NCBI GenBank assembly: GCA_964016885.1
Contig: OZ024754.1
Coordinates: 14,446,001 to 14,510,000, forward strand
Source of the DNA: Eledone cirrhosa
Lineage: Eukaryota
Length of the DNA stretch: 64,000 bases
Reading direction: 5' to 3'
The first letter of the stretch is position 1. Each line of letters starts with the position of its first letter. The notes beneath the pieces were generated by a model. That model was not told the origin of the DNA. It did not search any database and was given only the letters and a program-made list of their open reading frames with translations. Below, one piece after another: positions 20,416-60,510 of this stretch. The position numbers and the translations under genes were made by a program.

Positions 20416-20622
20416 ATAAAATGTTTTGAACATAGTTTTGATTATTGTGTAATATATATATATATATATATATATAGTACGTTATTCCGGGTTGAATCGG
20501 AGGTAACCACAGTAAGTAAGGTACTCAATACATTGCAGAGTATAAAAGTTTTAATATAGATGAGATTCTGCAGGACTAGAACTGTTTCATTCTAGAACTG
20601 TTTCATTCTTTAGAAATCATCA

Positions 20623-20671
20623 GATTCCTGATGATTTCTAAAGAATGAAACAGTTCTAGTCCTGTAGAATC
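20623..20671 (+). ncRNA. Type I hammerhead ribozyme in a palindromic PLE-like insertion (20478-20688)
   Basis: gattc CTGATGA tttc-taaa-gaat GAAA cag-ttctagtc-ctg TA gaatc; mirror copy on -; same family at 40431-40565 and 54548-54742. Confidence 0.75.
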
Positions 20672-20684
20672 TCATCTATATTAA

Positions 20685-20768
<84 letters not shown>

Positions 20769-28594: not shown

Positions 28595-28684
<90 letters not shown>

Positions 28685-28685
<1 letters not shown>

Positions 28686-29173
28686 GAAAAAAGTTTGTCC
28701 TTCATCAGTGATCTTCCAACTATCATAGGCATTTCATCGCTTTAAAGACCATATACCTCCGGTTGGTGCGAGCAACGGCTAAAAAAAGTCGTTCGGACAC
28801 GTAAATAAAGGGGACGCGAGGGTAAACAAACAAAATGGTGAAGCAACAGAAAGTGAGGAAGAAGGAGACAAGTCCCAGATTTCTATGAATTTAAGTTCGG
28901 TGAAATCGTGAACGAGAGAATAAAGACCATCAAACCTGGTTCGGACACGATTTCACCGAACTTAAATTCATAGAAATCTGGGACTTGTCTCCTTCTTCCT
29001 CACTTTCTGTTGCTTCACCATTTTGTTTGTTTACCCTTGCGTCCCCTTTATTTACGTGTCCCAACGACTTTTTTTAGCCGTTGCTCGCACCAACCGGAGG
29101 TATATGGTCTTTAAAGCGATGAAATGCCTATGATAGTTGGAAGATCACTGATGAAGGACAAACTTTTTTCATA
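28685..29173. mobile_element. Palindromic insertion of a retroelement 3' end carrying a structured RNA
   Basis: Arms ~28685-28910 and 28948-29173 are near-perfect inverted repeats; relatives at 55569-55820 (-) and 59810-60040 (+). Confidence 0.75.
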
Positions 29174-29209
29174 TGTAACCCATTTGCAACTCCGCAGCGC
29201 CCTTATTAT

Positions 29210-29295
<86 letters not shown>

Positions 29296-40431: not shown

Positions 40432-40515
40432 CGTTATTCCGGGTTGAATCGGAGGTAACCACAGTAAGTAAGGTACTCAATACATAGCAGAGTATAAAAG
40501 TTTTAATATAGATGA

Positions 40516-40564
40516 GATTCTACAGGACTAGAACTGTTTCATTCATTAGAAATCATCAGGAATC
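40516..40564 (-). ncRNA. Type I hammerhead ribozyme
   Basis: gattc CTGATGA tttctaatgaat GAAA cag..ctg TA gaatc. Confidence 0.75.
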
Positions 40565-45289: not shown

Positions 45290-46270
45290 TTATCCATATA
45301 GCTTGAGGAAAGTTCCCGTCCTTAGGTGTCTGCAGGCACCGAATAAGTTGGCCCTTCTGTTTAATAGCTTGGTTCCGCCATGAAGAATCTCGAGTGTCTC
45401 ACTAAGACAGAGGTAGCAAATACCAGACCCGCCTCTGTCTGGGGGAACCTTTCTAACCACGGACCAGACCAGACAGTGCGGGGTCTTTTCAAGTTTGAGC
45501 TTCCAGATCAATTCAGAAATGGCCGTACATTTCCTCTTATCTATTCTGTTAAAGGAATGGCAATGGTTATACCACCGATCTTTGAAGCTCGTCGCTGTGG
45601 ATCCTATGTAGTGGTGCTCCGAGTTAGGGGTTGTGACCTTGCACCTGTAGACCACGTTTTTCGTCATGCATTCATTACTAAGGGGGCATAGTGATGGGTC
45701 TCTGCAATTACATGACTTCTTAAGCCCCACCACATGTACCGCGTGGTTACCATCACTCGGGGTTGGCTGAGTAGCCGCCGTAATCAGCACAGGGTCGTTG
45801 GGTTCCGGTGTGCTAGTTGGGTCTGTCCGGGTTCCGTTGCGTCCCGCGTGCTAGTTCTGTTGGGTGTCTCCGGGGTTTACGGTGGTATTAGAGGCAGTGA
45901 GCCTATTCCTATTTATGCCAGCTATGTGCTGGGCTACGGAGCGTGTGGTTGAGTAGGAAAGTTTCACCGTGTGCCTGTTGAATATTTTATGGTACTTGTG
46001 GGCCCTAGGGAAACATTTATCCAGTACTCTAAAGAATATTCTAGCCAGGCTGGTACGTAGACCCACCGAGTATGGAGGGTTATACCATGTGACCTTCCTG
46101 GTCCTATTCTTGCGGGGTTGTTGGGTGTCCGCCGTGGGCCATCGCGTGGTTGTGCACAGCTCAGGTCGAGCTCGGTTGGTGTCACTCGGGTGTGCGGAGC
46201 GGTCACTATCATGAGGGTTATATGGGCCCACTCTGGGGCTATAAACCTGCGAGGTGCGGCCTCCCTGCTC

Positions 46271-46272
<2 letters not shown>
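45290..46272 (-). pseudogene. Penelope-like retroelement C-terminal linker plus GIY-YIG endonuclease, 5'-truncated
   Basis: [24 protein letters not shown], then in the same frame after one TAG (45851-45853) CNCR..CPL..C..VVY..YIGST..FKDRWYNH..CYLCLSE..LLNRR..CRH; 5' end abuts (TA)n. Confidence 0.88.
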
Positions 46273-46339
<67 letters not shown>

Positions 46340-46390
46340 CAAATAGTATTTGTTTTTATATATATCAGCTCGTGTGTTACCTTTCTACAT

Positions 46391-47577: not shown

Positions 47578-48104
47578 AAAAGATCTCAGATGCTGAATTT
47601 TTGCTGATGACATAGTTCTGATGACAAACACAGCGAATGAGGCAGAGGAGTTGATGTGAGAGGTGGAGACTGTGTCTATGCGTGTGGGGCTGAGAATGAA
47701 TGAGAGTAAGACGAAGTATCTGGTGGGGAACATGAAGGAGCCAGAGAAGATTATGAATGTCGACTGGAAGGTGCTAGAGCTGGTTGAGGACTTCCTGTAT
47801 CTGGGAGCAAAAATTGGGAACACAGAGGATGATGTGGCGGAGAGGAAGAGCAAAGCCTGGGTGGCGTGTCAAAGTTTGAGGTCGGTGTGGAAGTCCGACC
47901 TTCGTAAAGACCTGAAGATCCGTCTCTTCGTTGCTACAGTGGTGTCTATGCTGCTGTACGGGTCTAAGACTGGGACACTGACCAAGAAACTCACTCAGAT
48001 GGTGGATGGGTGTTACACGAGAATGCTGAGGATGGCTCTGAACATTAATCAGTATACAGTGAGGATGAAGAACTCAGAGCTGTACAGGAGCCTCCCAAAA
48101 GTTA
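47578..48104 (+). pseudogene. RTE-clade LINE reverse transcriptase fragment (inverted segment)
   Basis: FADD motif near 47600, GLRMNESKTKYL, VEDFLYLG, KIRLFVATVVSMLLYGS, YTRMLRMAL, ELYRSLPKV. Confidence 0.9.
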
Positions 48105-48134
48105 CACACGCACACACACACTGGCAGACACACA

Positions 48135-48220
<86 letters not shown>

Positions 48221-48236
48221 TACATACATACATACA

Positions 48237-48289
<53 letters not shown>

Positions 48290-48292
48290 ACA

Positions 48293-48457
48293 TCTGTAAT
48301 TGCGAGTCCCTGAGTGTGTTTTTGTGTTACCGTAAGTGTACATTTATTAATTGAAGAATTTCATAAATTTATATAATTTACATTAAACACCCAAACACTT
48401 TTTAAAAATCTATTTCTACATATTCAGCATCCAGGCAACGCTGGGTGCTTCTGCTAG
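48293..48457 (+). mobile_element. Short Helitron-like element or 3' end
   Basis: ccaggcaacgctggg hairpin plus CTAG|T, same as 11010-11037; possible A|TC start. Confidence 0.55.
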
Positions 48458-54210: not shown

Positions 54211-54563
54211 ACAAAAAAATCAGGTGGACCATAACGCACCAGAGTACTCGATACTTAGGGTAGTAGAGTGGGTAATAGGAAAAGTGTGAAGGCCCCGACG
54301 GCTGAGCCTCGGCCGTTTCAACAGCTAGATCCGAACGCAGCTAGTTGGGATCTAGCTGTCGAAACAGCCGGAGTTCAGCCGTCGGGGTCCTGACTCTTTT
54401 CCTATATATATATATATATATATATATCGTTTCTGAATTTGTTTAGCAAGATTCTTTATCTGAAATCGTGTGTTGAAACCGATATTGTTATACTTTGGCA
54501 ACATGACCCTCCCAAAGTATAACAATATATATATATATATATATATAGTTTTAATATAGATGA

Positions 54564-54657
54564 GATTCTACAGGACTAGAACTGTTTCATTCATTAGAAA
54601 TCATCAGGAATCTCTGATGATTTCTAATGAATGAAACAGTTCTAGTCCTGTAGAATC
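54564..54657. ncRNA. Head-to-head pair of type I hammerheads
   Basis: 54564-54612 (-) complete; 54614-54657 (+) from CTGATGA to TA gaatc. Confidence 0.75.
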
Positions 54658-54740
54658 TCATCTATATTAAAACTGTTATACTCTGCTATGTATTGAGTAC
54701 CTTACTTACTGTGGTTACCTCCGATTCAACCCGGAATAAC

Positions 54741-55480: not shown

Positions 55481-55572
<92 letters not shown>

Positions 55573-56169
55573 TAAAGTTAGTCCTTCATCAGTGATCTTC
55601 CAACCATCATTGGTATTTCATCGCTTTAAAGACCATATACCTCCGGTTGGTGCGAGCAACGGCTAAAGAAAGTCGTTGGGACACGTAAATAAGGGGAACG
55701 AGCGAGAATGTAAACAAACAAAGATGGTAAAGCAACGAAAAGTGAGGAAGAAAGAGTCAAGTCCCAGATTTAAGTTCGGTGAAATCGTGAACGAGAGAGA
55801 ATAAAGACCATCAAACCTAGTCGAAAGGTGAGCCAGGAAGGAATTCCGCACATATATATATATATATATAAAAGAAAATTTCACTCTACATGACTGAATA
55901 TAATAAATGTAATCTGAGTTTTTCGCATGCCAACACAAGAGCAAGAATGAAGTGTTCATTCTACTGACATGGCTATAAAATTGAGTCTTGTTTGCATAAT
56001 TGCAAACGAATCGAATGTTATTATTAATATTCGAAAAACTCAGATTACATTTATTATATATATATATACGGCGATGAATTTGTTTTGCAATGTTTTTCAT
56101 ATGAAATCGTGTGGAAACATATATTGTTACATTTGGAGAGGGTCGAGTTGTTATAATATTGCCAGAAAT

Positions 56170-59336: not shown

Positions 59337-59930
59337 CAACAGCAGCAACAGCAACAACAACACAACACACCTCCAGCATGAACACAAACTTTAATCTCTA
59401 CATCTAATAAACATTTGCTCTACGGGTTTTTTTTAAATATATATAATCGTTATCAAGCCCCCTTCGGATTTTAGTATTCTCATTTACTATTACTATATAT
59501 ATATATAGATAGATATTTGCAACAACGCAGCACGCCATTTTTCATTCCTATATTTGTTTCCCCTCGCTGTGACCTGTCTTTTTCTATCACCTTACTGCTA
59601 TCTTCTTTCTCTCTCCCCCTTCTCTCTCCTTGTACCTCTTATTTTCATTCACCCCCTCTGCTGGTCACTCTCTCTCGGCTGGCCACTTCCTCACACTTTC
59701 ACTCACTCACTCTCTGCTACTCCCCCTCTCTCACTTCCTCCCGTCTGACCTGTGTGATATCCTTTTCTCGCTCACATTTCGCAGGGTTGGGACGCATCCT
59801 TCTTCTCGTCAATGATTTGCTAGAACTTAAGTTCACATGTATCACTGACTTGTTTTCTCATTTTCCTCTCTTTACGTTGCCTTACCAATTTGTTTGTTTA
59901 CATGTCTCTCTTTCTCCACCCAATTCTTTT

Positions 59931-60035
59931 TATCCCAATAACTTATTTTAGTTATTGCTCGCACTGACTTTGAGGTATCTGGTCTTTAATGCGAAGAAAT
60001 ACCGATGATAGTCAGAAGATCACTGATGACGGATA
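59931..60035 (+). ncRNA. Unclassified conserved structured RNA with covarying helices
   Basis: Compensatory changes relative to copies at 29057-29160 (+), ~28697-28800 (-) and ~55580-55683 (-). Confidence 0.6.
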
Positions 60036-60510
60036 GTCCTGGTTTCTTGCTCTATTTTTCAATTCATATGTATCACATTCGCAACAACGCAGCACGCCAT
60101 TTTTCAATCATTTATATATATATATATATAGTACAATATGTAGAAAGGGTAACACACTAGAGAGAGAGAGTGCGTGTACGATTAATAAAACAGGGAAACC
60201 ACGAGTGCATGGAATCTATAACCTATGGAAGGCAGGGTAGACACACAATAATTAAAAATATAAATTAAAATACGCATACACACCTCTATAACTATATAGC
60301 ACACACGTACAAATCCAAAGAGATCTGTTTCGCCAGGAAGTTGCTGACTGAAATGGAAGCGCCTATGGTTCATCAGAGTGTCTCTCCCTCTAGTGTGTTA
60401 CCCTTTCTACATATTGTACTTTAAAGAGCTCAGGATTCCTTTTCCTTTGACCACATAATTTACAGGGAATAACGAGAGTCTATGGCTCCGTTAATTTATC
60501 TTGATGCATA

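Follow-up and report, generated by a model that had tools for sequence, protein, structure and literature searches.

The window, by which we mean the whole stretch of 64,000 nucleotides that was analysed, contains an RNA of about 105 bases (59931-60035, plus strand), and the question it raises is whether this is a structured RNA of a new kind or a known ribozyme in an unusual arrangement. The original prediction had described a conserved RNA with two pseudoknots, lying at the 3' end of a mobile family and a candidate self-cleaving ribozyme, and in these respects it is supported. It had also called the RNA unclassified and not a hammerhead, which no longer holds: every nucleotide of the hammerhead core is present, in the S-G-C block order known from PMC10085705. 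We put a probability of roughly 85% on the reading that this is a complete hammerhead core in S-G-C order with two extra helices, likely to cleave itself after H17 and to process the transcripts of a Penelope-like repeat that is non-coding and likely derived from Naiads.

All four copies first reported are present in the window. The flagged copy at 59931-60035 belongs to subfamily A. Subfamily B is represented by a plus-strand copy (29057-29160, with H17 an A at 29104) and by a minus-strand copy in an inverted arm (28696-28799, one base away from the 28697-28800 first given), in which H17 falls at 28752 and a C>G change breaks one P2 pair. The fourth, a B-related copy, lies on the minus strand at 55580-55683, with H17 an A at 55636.

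A hammerhead core in S-G-C order

The RNA holds the full hammerhead core in a non-circular order, GGTAT-H-TGGTCT, followed by GAAA and then by AGATCA-CTGATGA. Structurally, GGTAT/ATACC is hammerhead stem III with its U16.1-A15.1 pair, and TGGTCT/AGATCA is stem I. In the flagged copy, block S (59974-59985) is made up of the stem III strand GGTAT, H17 (a C at 59979) and the stem I strand TGGTCT. A linker of 4 nt then leads from stem I to stem II, and block G (59990-60003) follows with the 11.x strand of stem II, G12-A13-A14 (59996-59998) and the stem III strand ATACC. Block C (60017-60030) contains the stem I strand AGATCA, CTGATGA (60023-60029) and one extra base, here a C mismatched to 59995. 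This order is none of the circular ones, C-G-S, G-S-C and S-C-G, that define types I, II and III. The predicted cleavage site lies between 59979 and 59980, after H17.

A consistently placed GAAA and UH had been reported as lacking. Both are invariant in the 22 aligned copies, but they are sited upstream of CTGATGA instead of downstream: GAAA (59996-59999) and U16.1 are present in 22/22, while H17 is A in 14 copies, C in 8 and never G. The same invariance holds for the 12 core or core-flanking positions checked, for U1.1/A2.1, and for CUGAnGA, which has a strand of stem I on its 5' side. N7 (T or C) and H17 vary in the manner of hammerheads.

Eckert et al. 2023 (PMC10085705) named the S-G-C order type SGC, reported in vitro cleavage at 0.007-0.19 per minute, and described a short linker from stem I to stem II plus a helix joining both stems. 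In the literature available to us, the known non-circularly permuted hammerheads comprise one bacterial candidate besides a few hundred sequences of environmental RNA, and the three blocks are assumed to be unbreakable. No known Rfam family, including twister, HDV-like, pistol, hatchet and SECIS, matches the window at the gathering score, and there are no matches at E up to 10 in 59800-60200. This blank would be expected, since Rfam models cannot follow a non-circular order. It is also what a new class of self-cleaving ribozyme that merely contains CUGAUGA, the leading idea of the original prediction, would give, and the six-helix topology is unusual. However, all three hammerhead blocks and the stems are present and conserved, and we regard a new class as extremely unlikely; the RNA is better described as a structural variant of the S-G-C hammerhead form, with every core nucleotide in place.

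Conservation and covariation of the helices

Clustering at 90% placed 85 distinct full-length copies in 18 groups. The alignment of 22 natural copies comprises the four window copies, representatives of 16 groups and two more; the representatives of L031 (identical to window copy B over the stretch) and L134 were left out. Mean identity across the 22 is 76%, while the core is invariant. The helices that were originally named are all present in these copies, and the two extra pairings proposed from the same loop, TCGC/GCGA and TGGTCT/AGATCA, are real and correspond to stem II and stem I.

In the six-helix model, 89.4% of cells are paired and two-sided change is seen in 19 of the 34 pairs. None of 500 shuffles was as high for pairing and two-sided change, and slid controls were 27-48% paired; the number of further pair types did not beat the shuffles (420/500), and the shuffle control ignores relatedness among copies. 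The two-sided changes are found in 5/6 pairs of stem I (95.5% paired), in 6/6 pairs of the helix that joins stems I and II, and in 5/7 pairs of P2. Stem III is 99.1% paired and differs in sequence in other clades. Inside the main clade, two-sided change affects 1/5 pairs each in stems III and II, and covariation in these two stems comes only from comparison of clade with clade.

The layout recurs in coral-type copies from metagenomes, with stems I, II, III, P1 and P2 all wholly different in sequence. Searching strictly for the complete module gave a positive result in 18 of 37 copies, divided into 12/17 of the main clade, 5/7 of the coral-type copies and 1/13 of other own-genome families. Copies with the strict module beat 59 or 60 of 60 shuffles of their 5' part, and for each of the five coral-type copies with the full module 0/60 shuffles scored as high. 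Single-strand folding, which cannot model pseudoknots, was uninformative, with weak z-scores for the copies in the window (-0.8 to -2.0).

Stem II and the inserted helices

The departure from published hammerheads is concentrated around stem II. The strand expected 3' of CUGAUGA sits at the 5' end of the RNA, and the strand that actually follows CUGAUGA closes a different helix, P1. In the flagged copy the 5' arm of P1, TATCC (59931-59935), pairs with GGATA (60031-60035) and closes the RNA; this helix is 75.5% paired across the alignment. It is followed by the P2 hairpin CAATAAC/GTTATTG (59936-59957) and by the displaced 10.x strand of stem II, TCGCA (59959-59963), which pairs with TGCGA at 59990-59994 and has another sequence in coral-type copies. 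The 5' arm of the joining helix, CTGACT (59964-59969), pairs with AGTCAG at 60010-60015, and this helix is the equivalent of helix 'I' of type SGC. P1 and P2 are thus inserted at A9/10.1, between A9 and the rest of stem II. In type SGC, block C is uninterrupted and the stem II strand lies directly 3' of CUGAnGA, which is not the arrangement found here.

The assignment of stem II to TCGCA/TGCGA is based on its tether to stem I, made up of the 4-nt linker and the joining helix, as in type SGC. Since the chain leaves into P1 after A9 and stem II is completed by the 5' TCGCA, the RNA is an SGC hammerhead opened inside block C. Sequence and covariation together demonstrate stems I and III, a stem II with its 10.x strand moved 5', the joining helix and the P1/P2 insert. 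The helices would fold into an ordinary hammerhead active site, with P1 and P2 stacking and looping out to form a four-way junction.

Between A9 and G12, stem II is not a plain helix: it consists of one covarying pair (17/22), then of the helix completed by the displaced strand, which is 84.5% paired. That one pair joins the bases immediately 3' of A9 and immediately 5' of G12, as A-U in 6 copies, U-A in 5, G-C in 3 and G-U in 3; P1 also claims the G in two of the G-C cases. In the main clade the usual G10.1-C11.1 pair lacks conservation, and no pair is formed in 5/22 copies, including the flagged one (C-A), which may be weaker than its relatives. Penelope hammerheads can have a single unpaired base following A9 (PMC4209133). 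Catalysis could be slowed or abolished by the insertion of two helices at A9/10.1. Another candidate pairing, between the bases that immediately precede G12 and the displaced strand, occurs in 3/22 copies by column and in 5/22 with two gap-shifted rows corrected, and was rejected for the main clade.

Alternatively, the hammerhead may be the same and the stacking different, with P1 (GTCC/GGAC, like a classic stem II) on the core and the break in the chain between C11.1 and G12 instead of after A9. The junction pairs of P1 are C-G in 19/22 and 21/22 copies and are similar to stem II in one of the window's canonical minimal hammerheads (-39635). In coral-type copies, though, the G-C pair adjoining G12 belongs to the displaced helix while P1 begins with A-U, and the displaced helix also has the tether to stem I that stem II has in type SGC. 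This stacking is therefore very improbable, and we retain the displaced helix as stem II.

What is new with respect to published SGC ribozymes is the displaced stem II strand together with the two extra helices at A9/10.1, which break a block assumed to be unbreakable. A literature search, mostly of papers outside subscription and of text without figures, found no report of an opened-block-C form in animals or retroelements, and the supplement of PMC10085705, under a search by term, contains no mention of Acropora, Octopus, Metazoa or junction. The accessible part of PMC13725137 states that variants with additional helices or other permutations exist and is no more specific than that.

Abundance in the genome

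The core pattern has 20,646 matches in the 3.0-Gb genome, a count inflated slightly by overlapping matches, compared with 71 for a reversed-pattern control. The S-G-C structure descriptor gave 82 hits in the window and 60 loci and 0 in reversed or complemented controls, a contrast far beyond chance. In 60 loci picked by the 3' half only, 70 of 71 own-genome pattern matches passed the stem test, as against 11 of 120 matches in viral contigs. The viral figure refers to the relaxed test (strict, 3/120), and these passes were treated as background. Two related viral contigs, L426 and L455, pass the strict S-G-C stem test with a possible closing helix, and may reflect chance or coding sequence.

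A second pattern with another stem III had 242 matches, compared with 6 for its control. Further S-G-C-order families are found at own-genome loci L152-L165; their stem III is GGT/ACC, and their stem I sequences are unrelated. The layout with P2 and the displaced strand can be made out by eye in some of them, and the strict module is present in 1/13. A search for a pyrimidine at 1.3 returned 16 matches at 7 places, mostly truncated copies adjoining (TA)n, and the divergent families were taken from the genome core-pattern search instead. A family that breaks block C is thus present at about 20,000 copies in one animal genome.

The carrier element

The RNA is carried by a non-coding repeat of about 470-625 nt, tandem or inverted, that lies in (TA)n. 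In subfamily A (59515-60109, plus strand) the unit is non-coding and 562 nt long (59515-60073), and its start is repeated behind it (60068-60109). The subfamily B carrier (28679-29217, both strands) is a 5'-truncated inverted pair, 28679-28941 on the minus strand and from 28946 on the plus strand, and the B-related carrier (55563-55852, minus strand) is also 5'-truncated. Tandem periods are mostly 470-624 nt; the unit measures 562 nt in subfamily A, ranges from about 493 to 624 nt in B and from 512 to 535 nt in C, and its longest ATG frames are 43 aa in subfamily A and 24 aa in B. Copies are 5'-truncated, tandem or inverted, and end in a short repeat of the unit start, with the RNA 45-100 nt from the 3' end of the insertion. 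One locus (L073) has five consecutive units, each with its ribozyme. When compared with four contig sets, the subfamily B unit was present in one organism and in pieces in two more; these contigs show no molecule ends.

This layout fits Penelope-like insertions as PMC8557442 describes them, and it fits non-LTR retrozymes as presented in bioRxiv 10.64898/2026.07.22.740005, except that their hammerheads are type I. By analogy with Penelope retrozymes, tandem units would be transcribed, cut once per unit and possibly circularised, and a Penelope-like RT/endonuclease, provided in trans, would then reverse-transcribe the unit RNA at (TA)n targets.

The original prediction had placed the RNA where sister families carry a hammerhead. 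Hammerheads in canonical order do occur in the window, but no homology between them and the carrier emerged when three element units were compared with the window by blastn. There are 13 descriptor matches to the type I form, most with a short stem III; their CTGANGA motifs lie at +4077, +38432, +43064, +51360 and +55226 on the plus strand and at -44185, -43991, -43509, -39798, -39635, -38299, -5171 and -3541 on the minus strand. A separate repeat at about 20560-20690, 40500-40560 and 54540-54680 has long inverted arms around CTGATGA on both strands. The window also contains a Penelope-like ORF remnant (45290-46384, minus strand) whose C-terminal domain is GIY-YIG-like (Pfam E 0.0019, which falls short of the curated cut-off); all 150 of 150 scored genome candidates match it at 81% or more, and the order of domains suggests the label Neptune. 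A frame at 47660-48313 on the plus strand resembles the RT end of an RTE-type LINE.

Insertion ends at the predicted cut

If the cut RNA serves as template, insertions are expected to begin at or just after position 1.1. Among coral-type copies, 33 of 62 junctions fall within 13 nt upstream of the G block, where the cut lies at 11, with 7 at 14-56 and 22 further up; this count leaves out 16 contig ends and 2 unrelated matches. In the own-genome subfamily, 10 of 58 ends lie in the first 22 nt (cut at 16) where 2.4 were expected (p = 1e-4); with the next 99 nt as reference, p = 0.004. That sample began with 62 outermost copies, from which one duplicate was dropped, and the 58 are those ending within one unit, mainly of one subfamily. 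A second pile-up (6/58, L292-L351) lies 444-453 nt upstream of GAAA and is probably the natural unit start. We take the clustering of 5' ends as an indirect sign of cleavage. AT microhomology with (TA)n targets could account for the clustering, and in the own genome could add to it; the sample is of copies truncated outside the core.

These junctions bear on the idea that the RNA derives from a hammerhead but is no longer catalytic, its fold being kept as an RT-recognition or 3'-protection element. A position 45-100 nt from the 3' ends of insertions would suit such a role, the 10.1-11.1 pair is variable, and activity is itself a prediction from sequence. On the other hand, the invariant positions are those of the catalytic core, including a cleavage site that is never G, which a binding scaffold would not need, and the 5' ends of insertions pile up at the predicted cut. 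Loss of catalysis is for these reasons quite unlikely, and a self-cleaving hammerhead remains the preferred reading.

Probable relationship to Naiad retrotransposons

Craig et al. 2021 (PMC8557442) reported Naiads without a canonical hammerhead and flagged 'core' and 'half core' cases, Naiad_Ovul among them. In the accessible text, the absence is taken as a sign that Penelope-like elements need no hammerhead, and the half cores are left unexplained. We read by eye about 400 nt of the 3' ends of 45 consensus records in the supplement of that paper. An S-G-C order with an upstream stem II partner is visible in eight of them (Amil, Aacu, Anas, 3_Chem, 2_Movir, Obim, Ovul and Esco); P1 and P2 stand out best in the records from Acropora and Octopus. 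The C-S-G order is found instead at the end of six records from nematodes (1-3_Nbra, Hcon, Hpol and Asuum), and this form is represented by two sequences in Eckert et al. (PMC10085705). In the other 31 of 45, neither order is clear in the portion covered. Also by eye, the Octopus Naiads and subfamily A have a P2 loop motif of 10 nt in common, CTTATTTTAG.

Bivalve Naiad records have two other conserved 3' motifs, the first in Mgal, Bpla, Mphi, Scon and Mmer and the second in CGi, Sglo, Olur, Tgra and Pmar. The first, in our estimation, resembles a twister ribozyme.

Two short Acropora motifs led to 120 metagenome stretches, 80 of which were analysed. They gave 25 descriptor hits at 25 loci (22 coral-type and 3 unrelated), and none of the 80 loci is flanked by a long ORF. 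The own genome contains four decayed Naiad-like RT remnants (L352-L355), matched by a second RT pattern, 67-83% alike and broken by nested insertions, and none of the four has an attached ribozyme; a ribozyme 2.2 kb upstream of one (L352) was rejected as its partner, being a separate insertion. The search for a coding partner returned 0 matches to the Naiad_Ovul motif and 0 to one Naiad RT pattern. One locus (L199) runs into a Naiad-like start with no ORF over 108 aa. The units themselves are non-coding, with no ORF of N-terminal GIY-YIG and C-terminal RT attached to the repeat. The C-terminal GIY-YIG element of the window was likewise rejected as a partner: an S-G-C hit is found in 1/30 of its loci (L110), outside the 3' end of the ORF, and nine printed 3' ends of this element contain none.

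Because no coding partner is linked to the repeat in this genome and its RT remnants are without the ribozyme, Naiad ancestry is something we infer. The comparison with the Naiad records nevertheless suggests that the S-G-C RNA is likely the overlooked ribozyme of Naiad retrotransposons. A broader proposition seems to us, on balance, probable: that Naiads and their non-coding derivatives run on a family of reverse-order hammerheads, with the C-S-G form in nematodes and the permutation opened in block C, with its four-way junction at A9/10.1, in cnidarians and cephalopods.

If the RNAs cleave, the apparent lack of hammerheads in Naiads is explained by the descriptors used in searching, and self-cleavage may be part of Penelope-like transposition in general. 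Were the broader proposition of a reverse-order family true, the view of Naiads as lacking hammerheads would be overturned and the three-block rule for permutations broken, and non-circular hammerheads would be abundant in animal genomes, not a curiosity of viroid-like RNAs. Cleavage would also make A9/10.1 a natural site that tolerates a two-helix insert, useful for ribozyme engineering.

Comparison with known systems

The closest relative among known ribozymes is the type-SGC hammerhead (HRIMA-1 motif and variants, as set out in the accessible text of PMC10085705), which has the same S-G-C order, the full core and, within the core, two helices that cross. In both, a joining helix connects stems I and II at their far sides, and the linker is 4 nt here and typically 3 there. 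Whereas type SGC has the 10.x strand and one joining-helix arm 3' of CUGAnGA, both are found 5' of block S here, and P1 and P2 occupy A9/10.1, where PMC10085705 assumes at most 1-2 nt.

Like the non-LTR retrozymes and the Penelope-like pLTR hammerheads described in PMC4209133 and bioRxiv 10.64898/2026.07.22.740005, the elements are non-coding tandem units with one ribozyme each and with truncated and inverted copies. The hammerheads of those systems are of type I (C-G-S), often minimal and working as dimers, whereas the present one is non-circularly permuted. It has a full 5-bp stem III, and cleavage as a monomer would therefore be allowed.

With Naiads, as described in PMC8557442, the elements have in common (TA)n targeting, a pLTR-like tandem and inverted structure, and a short tail. 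By eye, the same ribozyme layout is found at the 3' ends of the Acropora, Clytia, Morbakka, Octopus and Euprymna records. Unlike Naiads, the elements here are non-coding, with no Naiad ORF linked to them in the genome. Single features recur in other structured RNAs: a double pseudoknot is also found in twister and HDV-like ribozymes, and the word TGATGA in the C box of C/D snoRNAs and in SECIS. Unlike any of these, or pistol or hatchet, the RNA has no Rfam match, and its conserved positions are those of the hammerhead core.
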